This document shows positions 1 through 4,170 of a stretch of DNA of 4,170 bases, piece by piece. Position 1 is the stretch's first letter. The number at the start of each line of letters is the position of its first letter. The DNA is from a virus. Taxonomy: Duplodnaviria; Heunggongvirae; Uroviricota; Caudoviricetes. The translations under genes were made by a program, and so were the position numbers. A model generated the notes under the pieces. That model saw only the letters and a program-made list of their open reading frames with translations. It did not search any database and was not told the origin of the DNA. The DNA lies in IMG/VR virus record IMGVR_UViG_2684622619_000033; one strand, given 5' to 3'.

Positions 1-1119
1 TCAAATAACCAACTTAACCCATTCCTGACCTCGAGTATCGTTATAGCGATCGGTGGTTGCCTGGACTTTATGTCCTAGTAATGTTTTTGTATCGATACCC
101 TGTGCACGGTACAGCCGTTCTGATAGAGAGCGTTGTTCATGAAATGTTGGCGGAGTTTTTCCTGCTGGTGGAATTACCCCAGCCAGATCCCGTGCTTTGG
201 CAAAGTAGTCGCTCAGGTTGTCTTTACTCATCGGCTTCGGTTGTTTCTGGTGCCGACTATGGATTAGATATGGACTTAATATTCTGTCTCGGCACCCATC
301 AATAACTTCTTTTAACGTTATCCCAATGGCATCACAGCGTAGTGTAAGCGGTAACGCCAGACGCATTCCGGTTTTTCCCTGGGTGATATGCAAGTGTTCG
401 TTCCACACATCTGAAAAACGCATGTGGCAAATGTCATCACGGCGCTGACCAGTAACAATCGCAAGAAGCATTGCGTTACGGATAAAGTGTTTTTCAGGCG
501 TTGCATTGTAAATTTTTTGCCAGTCTTCCATGGTGAGCCTGGCTCTGGTTACTTTAGGGATCGGTTTACGGGTAGCCTCCGGAGGATTCCATCCAGGAGG
601 AACTTCCCCTGCATGCTGTGCTTCTTTATAAATATCAACCCATAATCCACGATTTACTCTCGCTGTACTGACCATGTCTTTATCCAGCCACTCATCCAGT
701 ATTAATGCAAAGTCTCTTACTTCCAGTTCTTTCAATGGGTGGTTTCCCAGACGGGAAACCAGGTATGCAGCCATTCGAGTTTTTTCTTTGTGAGTTGTAG
801 CTGCAATATCTCCATTTTTCAGTCGCGTGTCCTGTATTTTCAGATATCGATCAACCCATGCCTTTAATCTGATACCCCGACGTTTTGTTGCTGACGGACT
901 TTCATCAATTTTGCGCATGAAATATTCAGCTTCTGCTGCAGCTATTCGCTGATTGGCTGTGGAAGCGATTTTTTCTGCCTTACCTTTGTCTGTTCCGAGT
1001 CCGTGAAATTTTCCAGTCACAGGATTTTTATACTGGTAGTAAACTCTGCCAGTTCTGCGATCAAACTTTTCGTAAAGACCGGCTACGTCAGTGCTGTTTT
1101 TTCGTGGCCTCGGTGACAT
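1..1119 (-). CDS. int: Phage integrase, lambda Int-family tyrosine recombinase (372 aa, complete)
   Basis: Complete ORF with stop at 1-3 and ATG at 1117-1119; on the minus strand AAGGAGA lies 9 nt upstream of the ATG. C-terminal region HEQRSLSERLY...LLGHKVQATTDRYNDTRGQEW aligns by eye with lambda Int HELRSLSARLY...LLGHKSDTMASQYRDDRGREW, including the catalytic Tyr; box-I-like VTGQRRDDICHMRFSDV also present. Confidence 0.93.
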   Translation of the reverse strand: MSPRPRKNSTDVAGLYEKFDRRTGRVYYQYKNPVTGKFHGLGTDKGKAEKIASTANQRIAAAEAEYFMRKIDESPSATKRRGIRLKAWVDRYLKIQDTRLKNGDIAATTHKEKTRMAAYLVSRLGNHPLKELEVRDFALILDEWLDKDMVSTARVNRGLWVDIYKEAQHAGEVPPGWNPPEATRKPIPKVTRARLTMEDWQKIYNATPEKHFIRNAMLLAIVTGQRRDDICHMRFSDVWNEHLHITQGKTGMRLALPLTLRCDAIGITLKEVIDGCRDRILSPYLIHSRHQKQPKPMSKDNLSDYFAKARDLAGVIPPAGKTPPTFHEQRSLSERLYRAQGIDTKTLLGHKVQATTDRYNDTRGQEWVKLVI

Positions 1120-1357
1120 GAGTTAAAATCTCCTTCAGTGCATCATCATCGCCAGTATGAATTTCCGGCGCAATTCCCGTTTCACCAGGCCCAACAAATA
1201 CTGCTCGGCGATCTATCAGCCAACGCCCACGAATTTTTTGTGGTCTTGGAACGATGTATCCTAGTTTTCCGTATTTCACCAGGGTAGTGTTTGTTATTGG
1301 GAGACTGAACCGTTTTGGTTTCCACTCGTCGAGCGTTATCAGGTACTGTTCGCTCAT
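1088..1357 (-). CDS. xis: Excisionase (Xis-like, about 89 aa from the first ATG)
   Basis: ORF overlaps the int start by 32 nt, as in lambda xis-int. N-terminus MSEQYLITLDEW resembles lambda Xis MYLTLQEW. The track ORF begins at GTG 1364-1366; the first ATG is 1355-1357, with GGAG 8 nt upstream on the minus strand. Start choice is uncertain. Confidence 0.75.
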   Translation of the reverse strand: MSEQYLITLDEWKPKRFSLPITNTTLVKYGKLGYIVPRPQKIRGRWLIDRRAVFVGPGETGIAPEIHTGDDDALKEILTHVTEATKKQH

Positions 1358-1376
1358 GGCTATCACTCCGGAACGC

Positions 1377-1406
1377 GCCAGTTGCAGAATATCAACGACA
1401 ACTGGC
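1377..1406. repeat. 8-bp inverted repeat GCCAGTTG-N14-CAACTGGC just upstream of the xis ribosome-binding site
   Basis: Read directly: GCCAGTTG at 1377-1384 and its reverse complement CAACTGGC at 1399-1406. No U-tract follows on either strand, so it is not an obvious intrinsic terminator. Confidence 0.4.
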
Positions 1407-1497
1407 GACGGTTGAACATTAAAAATCAGCCTGACTCGGGATCAGTTTTTGCCAGATAACTGAAACGTATTTTGCCTGGTAACGGGCGTCATCAAGT

Positions 1498-1548: not shown

Positions 1549-1674
1549 ATCGGTCATAATGGCAGATTGCGCTTCGCGTGATTGCTTAAGCCACCATTTA
1601 ATGGTGTCCCTCGCCGTGTGCTTTCGTGTTGTGTGCCTGCTTTTTACCACGTCAGGCGAGGTGGTCCCCGTTAT

Positions 1675-1720
1675 TCCCCAACAACAAGGATCTTGTTAAT
1701 CTGGATATCCCCAACAACAA
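1675..1720 (+). repeat. Two exact 13-bp direct repeats TCCCCAACAACAA (1675-1687 and 1708-1720), 33 bp apart
   Basis: Read directly. The repeats sit 15-60 bp upstream of the proposed start of the 1735-2250 ORF and bracket an imperfect palindrome ACAACAA-GGATC-TTGTTAA. Confidence 0.7.
1698..1710. repeat. Left arm of a perfect 13-bp inverted repeat (AATCTGGATATCC)
   Basis: Reverse complement equals GGATATCCAGATT at 2265-2277. Core GGATATCC is itself palindromic. A TTGTTAA heptamer adjoins both arms (1694-1700 and 2276-2282). Confidence 0.7.
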
Positions 1721-1734
1721 TAAGAGTATTGAAT

Positions 1735-2250
1735 GTGATCGCTGAATTAACGGCAGCAATGACGGCTATTCGTGAAACCGCCCAGATTGCAAAACTAATG
1801 AACGAGGCAAAAACTCAAGCTGAAGTAAATGCGGCTATTGGTGAACTGAACTCAAAGCTTGCATCTATTCAGCGCGAATGCGTGTCTCTCGTTGAGCTGG
1901 TGGGCACTTATCAAGAAATAAATGCTTCTCTCAAAGCTAAAATTGCAGAATTTGAAAACTTTGAGGCTCAGACGGAAGGTTATATCCTTAGCCAACTTGA
2001 GTCGGGAACTTTTGTGTACTCGAAGGAGGTAACCGTGAACGGCGGCAGCATAATCATGCATCTTTGTCCAAAATGTTTTGGACAAAAGATAGTATCGATA
2101 CTTCAGCCATTCCCGGTTAGAGAATATGAATTTTTTCATAAAAGCAGGTGCCTGTACTGTGAAAATCAGTTTCTTATGAATAAAAATCCGGATTACGTAT
2201 CACCTCCATCTATTGAAGAGTTGGCCAGAAAACTGAACGGCAATCTGTAG
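1735..2250 (+). CDS. Hypothetical protein, N-terminal coiled-coil plus C-terminal C4 zinc ribbon (about 171 aa)
   Basis: Long ORF ending at TAG 2248-2250. The track's 5' extension from 1582 is R/P/C-rich and looks non-coding. Start placed at in-frame GTG 1735 (AAGAG 8 nt upstream); alternatives are TTG 1729 and ATG 1759. Residues IAELTAAMTAIRETAQIAKLMNEAK...KAKIAEFENFEAQ look alpha-helical; the C-terminus has CPKC-x24-CLYC. Confidence 0.6.
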   Translation: MIAELTAAMTAIRETAQIAKLMNEAKTQAEVNAAIGELNSKLASIQRECVSLVELVGTYQEINASLKAKIAEFENFEAQTEGYILSQLESGTFVYSKEVTVNGGSIIMHLCPKCFGQKIVSILQPFPVREYEFFHKSRCLYCENQFLMNKNPDYVSPPSIEELARKLNGNL

Positions 2251-2264
2251 ATTTTTACTGTTAT

Positions 2265-2277
2265 GGATATCCAGATT
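2265..2277. repeat. Right arm of the perfect 13-bp inverted repeat (GGATATCCAGATT)
   Basis: Exact reverse complement of 1698-1710; lies 15 bp after the stop codon of the 1735-2250 ORF. Confidence 0.7.
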
Positions 2278-2289
2278 GTTAAAGAGCAT

Positions 2290-2313
2290 GCCGGATGCTT
2301 GCTTGTGTCCGGC
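2290..2313. terminator. GC-rich hairpin between the convergent ORFs (GCCGGA-N12-TCCGGC); weak terminator candidate
   Basis: 6-bp stem read directly. On the minus-strand transcript it is followed by AUGCUCUUU, a poor U-tract; on the plus strand no U-tract follows. Confidence 0.2.
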
Positions 2314-2364
2314 GCGTGTGCACCACTCTCCCCCCGTGGAGGATTCCTTAATTACCAGATTTCA

Positions 2365-2595
2365 TTAGTCAGAGTTTCTTGCTAACCAGCGACGCGCGCC
2401 AGATTCGGTTTTAAACGTTTTGCTTTTGGTATACGTCATCGCGGTGAACGTGCCGTCCTGGTTGGGAAACACGCCGCACACCAGAGATTCGTTGTTGCCA
2501 AGATCAAGAGTATCCATGCTGACCTCATATCCCCTTAACGCCGGGGTAGCGGAACAAAAACCTGCTGCATAGTTAAAGTTGAACCCTGCCGTCAT
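2365..2595 (-). CDS. Hypothetical small protein (76 aa), first ORF downstream of the leftward promoter
   Basis: ORF with ATG at 2593-2595 and GAGG about 9 nt upstream on the minus strand; stop TAA at 2365-2367. Sits about 95 nt downstream of a near-consensus minus-strand promoter. No family recognised; not Arg-rich like lambda N. Confidence 0.5.
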   Translation of the reverse strand: MTAGFNFNYAAGFCSATPALRGYEVSMDTLDLGNNESLVCGVFPNQDGTFTAMTYTKSKTFKTESGARRWLARNSD

Positions 2596-2674
2596 GTTCT
2601 TACGCCTCGGGCTGGCTACTTAATCCCTGACCACTGCCGGGTAACTCTAGGTATTGCCCTGTATTGTGTGGGAC

Positions 2675-2692
2675 GGGATGGGTTGGTATGGG
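2675..2692. repeat. Direct repeat copy 1: GGGATGGGTTGGTATGGG (copy 2 at 3064-3082)
   Basis: Read directly. Matches 3064-3082 GGATGGGGTTGGTATGGGG apart from G-run length. This copy lies at the predicted start of the leftward transcript. Confidence 0.7.
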
Positions 2693-2695
2693 AAA

Positions 2696-2724
2696 ACTAT
2701 AGGAAATGCCTAATTGCTTGTCAA
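2696..2724 (-). promoter_or_regulatory. pL-like sigma70 promoter, TTGACA-17 bp-TATAGT on the minus strand
   Basis: Plus-strand TGTCAA at 2719-2724 is TTGACA on minus; plus-strand ACTATA at 2696-2701 is TATAGT on minus; spacer is exactly 17 bp. It fires leftward toward the 2365-2595 ORF, xis and int. Confidence 0.6.
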
Positions 2725-2758
2725 TAGGCTACGCCTAATGATTTGGGTGCGACCTAAT
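2698..2758. promoter_or_regulatory. OL-like operator cluster built on half-site ATTAGGC / GCCTAAT
   Basis: Near-perfect 7-3-7 palindrome AATAGGC-TAC-GCCTAAT at 2723-2739 abutting the -35. Weaker site TATAGGA-AAT-GCCTAAT at 2698-2714 overlapping the -10. Possible third site ending in ACCTAAT at 2752-2758. Centres of the first two are 25 bp apart. Confidence 0.55.
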
Positions 2759-2832
2759 AGGTGATGGTTTGTGGGAGAGGTAGTAGGAGTTAACTAACGG
2801 GAACTAGGAATTTCCCGTCGGACCATATAAGT

Positions 2833-3309
2833 TTAAGTTCCTGTCTTGGTGATGTTCTGGCTTTTCCGTTTTGATTCTTGATTTTTCAGATAGTTAGCTA
2901 CCTTCATTTCCATTGCGGCAATGTAGGCACGAACGTCATGATCAACCCAACTAGGCTCCGTAGCATTTCCAGATAAGAGGAAAGCCACAATTGCTCTTTT
3001 TTCATCAGAGGCGGCTTGATAAAGGCTGTTTATGTCTAAAAGTTCACTTTTTGTATCTGAAGTGGATGGGGTTGGTATGGGGTATTCGTTAAGCCCCCAA
3101 TGCTCTGGACCAACCACATCAGAAAAGAAACGCCATAGTTCTGGAAGTTTGTCTTTACTTATCGAACCTTTCTTAATCCAGTCATGGATTGATGGTGGTT
3201 GGACTTTGAAATGACGTGCGATTTCCGCCTTTGATTTGACGGCTCCTGATGCAATTTTTTTGTTAATGGCCTGCTCTATCGCTCGGCCTAAGTCTTTACC
3301 ACTAAGCAT
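2833..3309 (-). CDS. racR: CI-type prophage repressor, HTH only, no S24 peptidase domain (158 aa); RacR-like
   Basis: ORF with ATG at 3307-3309 and AGGAGA 10 nt upstream on the minus strand; stop TAA at 2833-2835. HTH-like segment KSKAEIARHFKVQPPSIHDWIKKG. Diverges from a Cro-like gene across an operator-rich spacer. The length and neighbours match my recollection of the Rac racR-ydaS-ydaT region; the symbol is a family-level guess needing BLAST. Confidence 0.85.
   Translation of the reverse strand: MLSGKDLGRAIEQAINKKIASGAVKSKAEIARHFKVQPPSIHDWIKKGSISKDKLPELWRFFSDVVGPEHWGLNEYPIPTPSTSDTKSELLDINSLYQAASDEKRAIVAFLLSGNATEPSWVDHDVRAYIAAMEMKVANYLKNQESKRKSQNITKTGT
3064..3082. repeat. Direct repeat copy 2: GGATGGGGTTGGTATGGGG, inside the repressor coding sequence
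   Basis: Read directly. On the minus strand it encodes the PIPTPS segment of the repressor. Confidence 0.7.
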
Positions 3310-3336
3310 TGCTTAATAGTCTCCTATGCGCATCGC

Positions 3337-3404
3337 ATTAGGCAATACCTACTCTCGAAGCGTTAGGCATAGCCTATTGACAGTTGCATTAGGCTAAGCC
3401 TAAT
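3337..3404. promoter_or_regulatory. OR-like tripartite operator: O3 3337-3353, O2 3362-3378, O1 3388-3404
   Basis: O1 ATTAGGC-TAA-GCCTAAT is a perfect 17-bp palindrome. O2 is GTTAGGC-ATA-GCCTATT (one mismatch per half). O3 is ATTAGGC-AAT-ACCTACT (right half degenerate). Centres are 25 and 26 bp apart, between the divergent repressor and Cro-like genes. Confidence 0.7.
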
Positions 3405-3406
3405 AT
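3377..3406 (+). promoter_or_regulatory. PR-like sigma70 promoter, TTGACA-18 bp-TAATAT, driving the Cro-like operon
   Basis: -35 TTGACA at 3377-3382 and -10 TAATAT at 3401-3406; the -10 overlaps O1. GGAG at 3422-3425 and ATG at 3434 follow. Confidence 0.65.
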
Positions 3407-3433
3407 TATTGTGTGTTTTTTGGAGTTCATTCG

Positions 3434-3757
3434 ATGAAAAAAGATAACTATTCATTCAAACGAGCTTGTGCTGTTGTCGGTGGGCAATCAGCAATGGCTA
3501 GGCTTTTAGGTGTATCTCCTCCAAGCGTAAATCAATGGATCAAAGGTGTACGTCAGTTGCCTGCTGAGAGATGTCCTGCGATTGAACGAGCAACAAAAGG
3601 TGGTGTCCTGTGTGAAGAACTTCGTCCTGATGTTGATTGGACATACTTACGACGCTCGTCATGTTATTCGCAGAATATGTCGATGAAGCAACCAAATGAC
3701 GAAAACGATCATACCCGAAGCATCAAGAGGCAAATGATTCATGAAAATCAAACATGA
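3434..3757 (+). CDS. ydaS: Cro-like HTH regulator (YdaS-like, 107 aa)
   Basis: ATG 3434 with GGAG 8 nt upstream; stop TGA 3755-3757. HTH segment GGQSAMARLLGVSPPSVNQWIKGV is Cro/YdaS-like. The track ORF starts 21 nt earlier at an ATG without an RBS. Symbol from recall, needs BLAST. Confidence 0.85.
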   Translation: MKKDNYSFKRACAVVGGQSAMARLLGVSPPSVNQWIKGVRQLPAERCPAIERATKGGVLCEELRPDVDWTYLRRSSCYSQNMSMKQPNDENDHTRSIKRQMIHENQT

Positions 3758-4019
3758 GCACATCCGCATGGCGATGAATGCCTGGGCATATCCTGATGGT
3801 GAGAAAGTTCCTGCAGCTGAAATAGCCCGGACTTATTTCGAACTGGGGATGACGTTCCCGGAACTGTACGACGACAGCCATCCGGAAGCCCTGGCTCGTA
3901 ATACNNNNNNNNNNNNNNNNNNNNNNNNNNNNNNNNNNNNNNNNNNNNNNNNNNTTGACCAACAATATTCATGCCGGATTTCTTCCGGATGTTCGAGGGT
4001 AAAGTTCGGTATCAGATGA
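3741..4019 (+). CDS. ydaT: YdaT-like protein in the cII position; 3' portion obscured by the N-run
   Basis: ATG 3741 with AAGAGG 10 nt upstream; overlaps the Cro-like stop by 17 nt. N-terminus MKIKHEHI matches my recollection of Rac YdaT; the rest is diverged. Frame and stop after the 50-N mask cannot be fixed; candidate stops are 4000-4002, 4017-4019 and 4022-4024. Confidence 0.5.
   Translation: MKIKHEHIRMAMNAWAYPDGEKVPAAEIARTYFELGMTFPELYDDSHPEALARNXXXXXXXXXXXXXXXXXXDQQYSCRISSGCSRVKFGIR
3905..3954. other. Run of 50 N (masked or unresolved sequence) inside the YdaT-like gene
   Basis: Literal n characters. The length is not a multiple of 3, so the downstream reading frame is undetermined. 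Confidence 1.
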
Positions 4020-4026
4020 GGTGAGT

Positions 4027-4170
4027 ATGGCTAATGCCTGGCTCAGATTGTGGCATGACATGCCAAATGATCCCAAATGGCGAACCATTGCCAGGGTCTC
4101 AGGACAGCCAATCGCAACAGTGATGGCGGTGTATATCCACCTTCTGGTGAGTGCGTCACGAAATGTCACG
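4027..4170 (+). CDS. 5' end of a plus-strand gene (48 codons, runs off the window); possibly a replication-module protein
   Basis: ATG 4027 preceded by GAGGTGA; translates without stops to the window end as MANAWLRLWHDMPNDPKWRTIARVSGQPIATVMAVYIHLLVSASRNVT. Absent from the ORF track because it has no in-window stop. Its position after the cII-like gene suggests an O/YdaU-like function; this is unverified. Confidence 0.6.
   Translation, partial: MANAWLRLWHDMPNDPKWRTIARVSGQPIATVMAVYIHLLVSASRNVT

Follow-up and report, generated by a model that had tools for sequence, protein, structure and literature searches.

The DNA analyzed here is a window of 4,170 nucleotides that ends with a repressor gene, a divergent Cro-like gene and a third gene whose product begins with MKIKHEHI, an order that an earlier note on the sequence had likened to racR-ydaS-ydaT of the Escherichia coli K-12 Rac prophage. 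The locus raises the question of whether its repressor holds an ordinary lysogeny switch or also restrains toxins, as that note had suggested from K-12. We found that O157:H7 chromosomes match the window at 100% identity, that the region adjoins potC, and that it is annotated as part of prophage Sp6 in strain Sakai (ECs_1501-1509) and as Z1764-Z1772 in EDL933. We consider it likely that Sp6 (CP-933N), a lambdoid prophage of E. coli O157:H7, has its immunity (lysis/lysogeny) region at positions 2690-4170, and we place similar, fairly good confidence in the mechanism described below as a whole. The repressor/Cro/CII-like lysogeny switch of Sp6 is an already annotated, known system, and our finding is mainly a correction about its ydaT allele. 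The racR gene, which encodes 158 aa, the divergent ydaS and the MKIKHEHI gene are all present in the order that had been claimed for them, at the coordinates given in Table 1.

Table 1. Features of the Sp6 immunity region (window coordinates)
Feature	Position	Strand	Description
PL-like promoter (predicted)	2696-2724	minus	-35 TTGACA 2724-2719, -10 TATAGT 2701-2696, 17-nt spacer
OL	2699-2738		two predicted RacR-type inverted repeats, ATAGGAAATGCCTAA 2699-2713 and ATAGGCTACGCCTAA 2724-2738; motif search
racR	2833-3309	minus	CI-type immunity repressor of 158 aa, no peptidase domain; ECs_1506 / Z1770
O3-like operator	3302-3316		CTAAGCATTGCTTAA, over the racR start codon (CAT 3307-3309); read from the sequence
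OR	3338-3403		three predicted RacR operators, TTAGGCAATACCTAC 3338-3352, TTAGGCATAGCCTAT 3363-3377 and TTAGGCTAAGCCTAA 3389-3403
PR (PydaST)	3377-3406	plus	-35 TTGACA 3377-3382, -10 TAATAT 3401-3406, 18-nt spacer
ydaS	3434-3757	plus	107-aa Cro analog; ECs_1507 / Z1771; 17-nt overlap with ydaT
PracR4 (PRE analog) counterpart, inside ydaS	3524-3556	minus	from alignment to K-12 (hexamers named in PMC11879457); -10 TACGCT (plus strand AGCGTA, 3524-3529), -35 CTGACG (plus strand CGTCAG, 3551-3556)
YdaT-box island	3734-3764		31 nt: YdaT-box ATGATTCATGAAAATCAA 3734-3751 plus 13 conserved bases
ydaT	3741-3958	plus	CII analog, in reality 141 aa; ECs_1508 / Z1772; full gene at EC4115 L001 7142-7567
Start of lambda-O-like replication initiator gene	4027-4170	plus	345 aa with a DnaT DNA-binding domain

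During this analysis, we also found that the window is masked at two places. At 3905-3954, 50 N stand in place of 258 real bases, and a second run of N, at 1498-1548, stands for 257 bases. When aligned to EC4115 (L001), window positions 1549-3904 correspond to 4950-7305 and positions 3955-4170 to 7564-7779. A 92-aa open reading frame that spans the first run is shown by this alignment to be an artifact of masking, and since the run hides 258 bases, the real ydaT gene encodes 141 aa and ends at window position 3958.

RacR and YdaS are both close to their K-12 counterparts. RacR is identical to K-12 RacR (b1356) at 145 of 158 positions (92%) and scores 246.8 bits over residues 1-145 against the NCBIfam RacR equivalog NF049929 (curated cutoff, 200). 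YdaS shares 83 of 98 residues (85%) with K-12 YdaS (b1357), exceeds the Pfam cutoffs for both YdaS_toxin (PF15943; 103.9 bits, cutoff 30) and P22_Cro (PF14549; 35.3 bits, cutoff 30.2), matches the Cro structure 3bd1 in the PDB (E = 2.8e-10) and is divergent from the repressor gene, so that it falls in the YdaS/Cro family. Its extra 9 aa relative to K-12 YdaS result from a CGA codon where the K-12 gene has its TGA stop. The DNA between racR and ydaS shares 93% identity with its K-12 counterpart, and full-length YdaT scores 41.1 bits against Pfam YdaT_toxin (PF06254; cutoff 21), so that the assignment of the locus to the Rac type of immunity module, made in the earlier note, stands. A PDB sequence search with RacR gave nothing meaningful (best E = 0.63), and its single-sequence AlphaFold model, whose mean pLDDT of 50.5 is too low for comparison of folds, lends weak support to an all-helical protein. 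A PADLOC search with five proteins returned no match.

The likeness to Rac extends to the predicted control sites. Using the operator motif derived from footprinting of the K-12 intergenic region (WTAGGC-n3-GCCTAW; PMC9638921), we found five sites with two or fewer mismatches where 0.41 were expected, and none of 200 shuffled sequences reached five. The operators of OR lie 25 to 26 bp apart and keep their half-sites relative to K-12, with 3-nt spacers that vary, and the O3-like stretch is identical in K-12, where it is operator 3 (PMC9638921). Both OL sites are also present in K-12 at equal spacing (L002 9630 and 9655); in Sp6 they overlap the -10 and -35 hexamers of the PL-like promoter, and we infer that RacR binds there. 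This promoter has 11 of 12 matches to the consensus, keeps both hexamers in K-12 Rac and is directed at a DUF1391 gene, xis and int. On the other side, PR overlaps the two promoter-proximal OR operators, and its hexamers are those of the mapped K-12 promoter (PMC9638921, PMC11879457). The counterpart of PracR4 keeps the K-12 -10 hexamer and differs by one base from the K-12 -35 hexamer (TTGACG); the placing of the -35 is uncertain because the spacer counts 21 nt in both sequences.

In contrast to racR and ydaS, the third gene is not of the Rac type. Its product is identical to Rac YdaT (b1358) at 44 of 144 positions (31%; E = 4e-14), compared to 87% identity to YdaT of CP-933P (Sp12), from which it differs at 18 of 141 positions, and 98.6% identity to the Sp14 copy. 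The recognition-helix segment, ALARNTQKIFRWLDKD, is identical to that of CP-933P YdaT, whose structure (8bt1) is matched in the PDB at E = 8.7e-80, with 3c4r matched as well. The full-length protein also belongs to the CII-like activators of phrog_163 (E = 3e-47), while the 54-aa part of YdaT that is visible in the window gave no Pfam match. With 31% identity to b1358 against 87 to 98.6% to the CP-933P subtype, Sp6 YdaT falls outside the class of Rac-type toxic YdaT proteins.

The change from one type to the other occurs within a short, shared sequence. Homology to Rac stops at window position 3764, which is 24 nt into ydaT and inside a 31-nt island that holds the ydaT start codon and codons 1 to 8 (MKIKHEHI). 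The YdaT-box in this island (WTGATT-N6-AATCAA, at the ydaS/ydaT junction) is exactly the footprinted K-12 YdaT-box (PMC11879457). The island is common to Sp4, Sp6, Sp10, Sp12, Sp14 and Rac, with unrelated flanks, and in other genomes and phages that match only in part, the alignment breaks off at 3733-3736 or at 3764. The replication genes that follow are also of the second type: the lambda-O-like initiator shares 96% identity with its Sp14 counterpart and has no relation to YdaU of K-12, and a lambda-P-type gene comes next, beyond the window. Thus, as judged from these alignments, the module is a mosaic in which OL, racR, OR and ydaS are Rac-type and ydaT from codon 9 onward, O and P are CP-933P/Sp14-type, and the joint between the two kinds of DNA is the 31-nt YdaT-box island. 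We found this racR-ydaS type in 1085 complete E. coli genomes; the partner at the junction is a CP-933P-type ydaT in 532 complete E. coli genomes and a Rac-type ydaT in 558. In a phage collection, the same racR-ydaS type occurs in one record, vB_EcoS-683R6.

By analogy to the homologous systems, RacR, as a CI analog with an N-terminal helix-turn-helix and a helical oligomerization domain, would bind 15-bp inverted repeats of the motif above, of which two lie at OL and four at OR, counting the one that covers the racR start. Binding would occlude the strong promoter PR, which serves ydaS-ydaT-O-P, together with the PL-like promoter. Such occlusion at OR has been demonstrated with the K-12 homolog, and we would extend it to Sp6 and to OL; RacR has been reported to repress PydaS and to assemble into octamers, and when it is depleted, xis and int rise approximately 100-fold (PMC9638921, PMC11014345). 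YdaS would be the Cro analog. YdaT, the CII analog, would bind the YdaT-box over its own start and activate the reverse promoter in ydaS, leading to more racR transcription. Box binding and activation of the reverse promoter have been shown for Rac and CP-933P, whose YdaT proteins cross-activate PracR4 through the YdaT-box (PMC11879457), and the Sp6 protein presumably does the same. The cost of losing RacR would then be that of ordinary prophage derepression, with O/P replication from the integrated or excising element and expression of YdaS and of downstream killing and lysis genes. Operator binding, promoter activity and YdaT behavior in Sp6 are all transferred from homologs in this scheme. 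Speaking against the proposed source of the cost, the left operon has neither kil nor dicB, and the prophage has a defective portal and no J gene.

A different cost would be paid if racR-ydaS-ydaT were a repressor-controlled toxin module as in K-12, in which YdaS and/or YdaT kill and the element is addictive. Besides the closeness of racR, the intergenic region and ydaS to K-12, this explanation can draw on a study in which a K-12 racR deletion was obtained only when ydaS and ydaT were both deleted too and in which YdaS, the 85% identical homolog, was lethal when overexpressed (PMC5700373). It can also draw on transposon sequencing of EDL933, in which the racR homolog Z1770 (24 TA sites) is classed as "Underrepresented" and ydaS and ydaT as neutral (PMC6705877 S6 Table; the racR entry is taken from there, and in the S2 Table of that paper a row for an MFS transporter is misplaced at the racR position). 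However, the lethality in K-12 has been attributed mainly to Rac YdaT activating rcsA, and the CP-933P protein is reported to lack both toxicity and activity on rcsA. Since the third gene in Sp6 is of this type, the "toxin" explanation taken from K-12 probably fails to transfer as stated. The K-12 route, in which Rac YdaT acts on the promoter of host rcsA, is improbable here, as the Sp6 YdaT type reportedly lacks that activity, although with 18 of 141 positions different from the tested CP-933P protein, Sp6 YdaT may have gained toxicity. The toxicity of YdaS is itself disputed, a later K-12 study having found that YdaS is not toxic (PMC11014345). In addition, ydaS of MG1655 has insertions at 0 of 13 TA sites, compared to 83% of 12 TA sites for the Sp6 copy, which fits a harmless downstream ydaT but does not prove it.

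The term "addictive" does not fit either. Loss of the whole element takes the repressed genes with it, which speaks against the killing of segregants by a stable toxin that outlasts a labile antidote; a K-12 strain from which all of Rac is missing is viable, cells short of RacR are rescued when Rac excises, and YdaS and YdaT are not a toxin-antitoxin pair (PMC5917428, PMC8630535). On balance, we regard a toxin module as improbable in Sp6, and the carrying over of YdaS/YdaT toxicity from K-12 in the earlier note is not supported as stated, the ydaT allele being of the CP-933P type. The related prediction that the repressor is not freely lost fared better, as the entry for Z1770 in EDL933 is published support for it (PMC6705877). 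Thus, RacR seems to be needed in Sp6, most likely because its loss derepresses the prophage, and losing it is probably costly.

The low transposon count in racR would mean little if the switch had decayed, its immunity genes being irrelevant relics and the count a product of insertion bias (H-NS, low GC). Sp6 does have a truncated exonuclease gene, a frameshifted portal gene and no J host-specificity gene (PMC2669165 among the sources), and Warr et al. cautioned that Himar1 may under-hit genes of low GC content that were acquired horizontally and have no K-12 homolog, irrespective of fitness (PMC6705877). Set against this, the adjacent ydaS gene, with a GC content of about 43%, is hit at most of its TA sites, and comparison with K-12, at 86 to 93% nucleotide identity, finds no disruption in any of the three reading frames, the five operators, the two promoters or the YdaT-box, with half-sites kept where spacers are free to vary. 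Sp6 also excises spontaneously and can be transferred to K-12, where lysogeny follows (PMC2669165), and the same racR-ydaS type recurs in the complete genomes and the phage counted above. A decayed, irrelevant switch is a very unlikely explanation. A further idea, that the Sp6 repressor is made redundant by the RacR of another O157 prophage, found no support in the early regions of Sp4, Sp9, Sp10, Sp12 and Sp14, in which we found no second RacR and no RacR operator and hence no backup repressor.

With prophage derepression as the preferred reading, we compared the Sp6 switch with known systems. Rac (b1356-b1358) has the same gene order and orientation, operators at matching places in OR and OL and the same PR hexamers, in addition to the RacR, YdaS, intergenic and YdaT-box identities given above. 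It differs in its YdaT, in a YdaS that lacks the extension overlapping ydaT, in having ydaU/ydaV replication genes where Sp6 has lambda O/P types, and in its attachment site, which is at ttcA for Rac and at potC for Sp6. Unlike Rac, the left arm of Sp6 is without kilR, sieB and recET, and no kil or dicB gene was found in its left operon. The paaR2-ydaS-ydaT locus of CP-933P shares with Sp6 the logic of CI, Cro and CII analogs, the YdaT subtype with its recognition helix and a near-identical YdaT-box at the ydaS/ydaT junction. Its repressor PaaR2 (123 aa) is unrelated to RacR and is followed by the paaA2-parE2 toxin-antitoxin pair, whereas Sp6 has no such pair downstream of racR, and its YdaS is only about 42% identical to Sp6 YdaS, over 55 aa. 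The resemblance to cI-cro-cII of lambda lies in the divergent repressor and Cro genes, the three or four operators over PR, the second set over a leftward promoter and the activation, by a CII-type protein, of antisense repressor transcription that starts inside the cro-cII region. Unlike in lambda, RacR has a helical C-terminal domain, only about 650 bp separate OL from OR, and YdaT is a POU-like tetramer with no sequence relation to lambda CII; in addition, no N-like gene was identified in Sp6.

The architecture of RacR also bears on how the switch could be flipped. A Peptidase_S24 scan of RacR returned nothing even at E values of up to 10, placing it outside the LexA/CI-type SOS-cleavable class, while the same scan gave 42.7 bits for the 214-aa CI of the neighboring prophage Sp14, which served as a positive control. 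Without an S24 domain for autoproteolysis, RacR cannot undergo RecA-stimulated cleavage. The lack of a LexA-like cleavage domain, already read from the sequence in the earlier note, agrees with a 2009 study of Sp6 that had reported both the missing peptidase domain and the absence of induction by mitomycin C (PMC2669165). As had also been noted, the window holds no antirepressor gene, and we found two Ant-like genes elsewhere in Sp6, one encoding Bro-N and P22_AR_C domains (292 aa; WP_000835336.1) and one P22_AR_N (189 aa; WP_001056806.1). The former follows Arc-family genes, an arrangement like that of immI in P22. In Gifsy-type induction, the antirepressor gene is under LexA control. A search of the whole prophage for a strict LexA box (CTGT-N8-ACAG) found none inside it, and the single match lies in the next element beyond potA.

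These results bear on how such loci are read from their annotation. The RefSeq name "toxin YdaT family" and the Pfam labels YdaS_toxin and YdaT_toxin invite the copying of K-12 lethality onto every racR-ydaS-ydaT locus. Approximately half of this racR-ydaS type is joined to a YdaT subtype for which published data indicate neither toxicity nor action on rcsA. If O157:H7 does need the repressor, the cause must then be a different one. How the non-SOS switch of Sp6 is flipped also bears on the spread of virulence genes, because the prophage is mobile and carries the effector genes nleL, espN and espK; the question of its induction was already raised in 2009.

The YdaT-box island may have consequences beyond Sp6. 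The Sakai genome has ydaT genes in Sp4, Sp6, Sp10, Sp12 and Sp14, each with its own box, and all but one of these five boxes match WTGATT-N6-AATCAA perfectly. Given the shared island and the reported cross-activation, YdaT from one awakening prophage could raise repressor synthesis in others, and the island could conceivably couple the prophages of one O157:H7 cell through a trans-acting brake on collective induction, a speculation to which we give little weight. Insertions in Sp6 ydaS were neutral in vitro and strongly depleted in the rabbit colon, a hint that the switch is in use in the gut.

The proposal in the earlier note that the window carries a Rac-type immunity module was borne out: all three genes of the racR-ydaS-ydaT set are present as described, and their family assignments are supported by sequence identity and profile models. 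RacR scored above the NCBIfam RacR equivalog cutoff (246.8 bits versus 200), YdaS passed the Pfam YdaS_toxin and P22_Cro models and also matched the solved Cro structure 3bd1, and full-length YdaT passed Pfam YdaT_toxin and the PHROG "CII-like transcriptional activator" family. Orthology to the genes of Rac, the cryptic prophage of Escherichia coli K-12, holds for RacR (145 of 158 residues identical, 92%) and YdaS (83 of 98, 85%) but not for YdaT (44 of 144, 31%; E=4e-14), and YdaU, encoded after ydaT in Rac, is unrelated to the product of the window's next gene. Everything structural at the locus is already annotated and published; what we add is where exactly the mosaic is joined (at the YdaT-box), that racR-ydaS is shared almost equally between two YdaT subtypes, and a tie between this locus and existing transposon data.

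Window positions 1-1497, 1549-3904, and 3955-4170 aligned to E. coli O157:H7 EC4115 with 0 mismatches. In this alignment the N runs at 1498-1548 (51 bases) and 3905-3954 (50 bases) stand for 257 and 258 real bases, respectively. Both runs are masks, not assembly gaps, so coordinates, frames, and ORF lengths across them differ from those of the real genome. Because the second mask replaces 258 bases, the ydaT product is 141 aa, ending at window position 3958; a 92-aa ORF spanning this N run was rejected as a masking artefact on the basis of the same alignment. Window positions 2600-4170 are 100% identical to many O157:H7 chromosomes, and the Sakai annotation names the region, which adjoins potC, "prophage Sp6; lambda-like phage," with ECs_1506, ECs_1507, and ECs_1508 as a phage repressor, a ydaS antirepressor, and a transcriptional regulator, respectively. 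The EDL933 counterparts of racR-ydaS-ydaT are Z1770-Z1772, in a prophage that starts at Z1764. In EC4115, Sp6 spans about 45 kb from potC to potB, with the effector genes nleL, espN, and espK aboard.

Features of the window and their coordinates
Feature	Coordinates	Strand	Remarks
Lambda-type integrase	1-1119	minus	
Excisionase	1088-1354	minus	
Truncated exonuclease pseudogene	between excisionase and 172-aa ORF		masked stretch inside
172-aa ORF	1732-2250	plus	
DUF1391 gene	2365-2595	minus	
RacR operator motif matches downstream of racR	2699, 2724		
Leftward promoter-like element	2724-2696	minus	TTGACA, 17 nt, TATAGT; conserved in K-12
Palindrome	2752-2762		ACCTAATAGGT
racR	2833-3309	minus	
Fourth OR site, predicted	3302-3316		CTAAGCATTGCTTAA; overlaps racR start codon, like K-12 operator 3
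Other RacR operator motif matches	3338, 3363, 3389		
PR (mapped K-12 PydaST hexamers)	3377-3406		TTGACA and TAATAT, 18-nt spacer
ydaS (Cro-like)	3434-3757	plus	
YdaT-box	3734-3751		ATGATTCATGAAAATCAA
ydaT (MKIKHEHI N terminus)	from 3741; real end 3958		
Replication gene	from 4027		start only

The 172-aa ORF is oriented against the early-left operon, in the position held by sieB in K-12 Rac, and encodes a protein whose N-terminal half is a coiled coil and whose C-terminal part bears a CxxC...CxxC pair. The ORF matched phrog_1244 (unknown function); Pfam yielded no family that passed the threshold, and PADLOC no match. We regard it as a candidate for a moron or exclusion gene.

Between racR and ydaS, the intergenic DNA shares 93% identity with that of K-12. 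The RacR operator motif WTAGGC-n3-GCCTAW, taken from K-12 footprints (PMC9638921), has five matches in the window against 0.41 expected, and at least five were found in 0 of 200 shuffles. All five recur in K-12 Rac with their relative positions unchanged; the half-sites are kept, and the 3-nt spacers differ. The two sites downstream of racR overlap the minus-strand promoter-like element, and we read this arrangement as a putative OL/PL that is presumably active. A conserved palindrome situated between racR and OL is identical in K-12 and has a spacing unlike that of the RacR operators.

By homology to studied relatives, RacR would act as a CI analogue that represses PR, regulates its own gene, assembles into octamers, and silences xis and int, all of which have been reported for those relatives (PMC9638921, PMC11014345). 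YdaS would likewise be the Cro analogue, and its overexpression is known to trigger Rac excision (PMC11014345). YdaT would be the CII analogue, binding the YdaT-box and activating a reverse promoter inside ydaS, an activation that reached up to 29-fold and raised racR expression in published work (PMC11879457). In the window, the -10 hexamer of this reverse promoter is identical to the named one and the -35 hexamer differs by one base; given the 21-nt spacer between them, the -35 assignment is taken with caution.

Even at E<=10, Peptidase_S24 was not detected in RacR, in a scan in which the CI of the O157:H7 prophage Sp14, as positive control, scored 42.7 bits, in agreement with the earlier description of a repressor without a LexA-like cleavage domain; a low-confidence model suggests that RacR may be all-helical. 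The missing domain is not a new observation, as Asadulghani et al. (2009) described the Sp4, Sp6, Sp9, and Sp10 repressors as lacking a peptidase domain and found mitomycin C not to induce Sp6, which nevertheless excises spontaneously and can be passed to K-12 (PMC2669165). A search of the rest of the element for a LexA-controlled antirepressor, as suggested previously, turned up two Ant-like genes and no match to the LexA box CTGT-N8-ACAG within the prophage. One, in the lysis region, codes for a P22_AR_N protein of 189 aa. The other belongs to a P22 immI-like insert between tail genes L and K (22342-23997 of L003, the Sp6 region), in which a divergent pair of Arc-family genes is followed by the gene for a 292-aa Bro-N/P22_AR_C Ant; one member of the pair is just 36 aa, and repeated TCACAGTG motifs lie in the DNA that separates the two.

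DNA homology to Rac extends over window positions 2530-3764 (86.3% identity) and ends 24 nt into ydaT, beyond which the sequence follows the lineage of CP-933P (Sp12). Sp6 YdaT is 98.6% identical to that of Sp14, 87.2% to that of Sp12/CP-933P, 78% to that of Sp4, and about 31% to those of Rac and Sp10, and for the replication initiator the identity to Sp14 is 96%. The crossover falls within a 31-nt island, (W)TGATTCATGAAAATCAARCATGARCACATC, that is common to Sp4, Sp6, Sp10, Sp12, Sp14, and Rac and has unrelated flanks; matches in other genomes and sequenced phages end at its edges (3733-3736 and 3764). The first 18 bases of the island are the YdaT-box, which is identical to that footprinted in K-12 (PMC11879457) and one base off the CP-933P operator (PMC9986795). 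The MKIKHEHI signature is largely the protein shadow of this DNA site and is therefore kept between proteins only 31% identical. Compared with K-12 (window 3692-3757), ydaS has CGA where the K-12 gene has its TGA stop, with a 12-nt deletion upstream of this codon. Translation therefore continues across the YdaT-box, so that ydaS and ydaT share 17 nt and YdaS has 107 aa instead of the 98 aa of K-12. The racR-ydaS type of the window occurs in 1085 of 5426 complete E. coli genomes, joined to a CP-933P-type ydaT in 532 and to a Rac-type ydaT in 558, figures that are counts and not natural frequencies since the collection is rich in O157:H7.

In K-12, racR can be deleted only if ydaS-ydaT is removed too (PMC5700373), and the killing was later ascribed to YdaT, not YdaS (PMC11014345); in PMC11879457 this toxicity is traced to YdaT directly activating the promoter of the host gene rcsA. 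The CP-933P homolog was unable to activate rcsA (PMC11879457) and showed no toxicity in an independent study (PMC8630535). The long HTH loop and recognition helix (FPELYDDSHPEALARNTQKIFRWLDKD) of Sp6 YdaT are identical to those of the tested CP-933P protein. Judged by sequence, the window's YdaT belongs to this type, reported as non-toxic and rcsA-inactive, so the K-12 mechanism, which the earlier note carried over too far, should not be assumed here. "Addictive" is also the wrong word for the element, since loss of the whole prophage removes the repressed genes as well; K-12 cells escape precisely by Rac excision.

In a Himar1 library of EDL933, the racR homolog Z1770 (24 TA sites) was "Underrepresented" and ydaT was neutral (46% of 13 sites hit), as was ydaS (83% of 12 TA sites hit) (PMC6705877). 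The early regions of Sp4, Sp9, Sp10, Sp12, and Sp14 yielded neither a second RacR nor a RacR operator. Our reading is that RacR is needed for the ordinary reason of a prophage repressor. PR leads to intact O- and P-type replication genes, with hokD and a lysis cassette further along Sp6; which de-repressed gene would do the damage we can only infer.

In an MG1655 Himar1 library, none of the 13 TA sites in ydaS (b1357; 10366-10662 of L002, the K-12 Rac region) was hit, compared with 3.3% of 30 in racR, and ydaT was neutral (66.7%). The difference from the freely hit Sp6 ydaS fits lethality of insertions that drive a downstream Rac-type ydaT. Sakai Sp10 (8353-9525 of L006, the Sp10 region), at the Rac attachment site ttcA, encodes a YdaT that shares 94% identity with the toxic K-12 protein; its gene has a perfect TTGATT-N6-AATCAA box, and the repressor and Cro that precede it are an unrelated HTH protein of 139 aa and a protein of 84 aa, respectively. 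If K-12-type YdaT toxicity occurs in any O157 prophage, it would be in Sp10, not Sp6.

Insertions in Sp6 ydaS (EDL933_RS08280/Z1771), neutral in vitro, were "conditionally depleted" in the colon of six out of seven infant rabbits (log2 fold change, -3.6 to -8.5). This depletion comes from the published EDL933 transposon data and is unmentioned in that paper's text (PMC6705877); it could reflect polarity, transposon read-out, or the switch actually being used in the gut.
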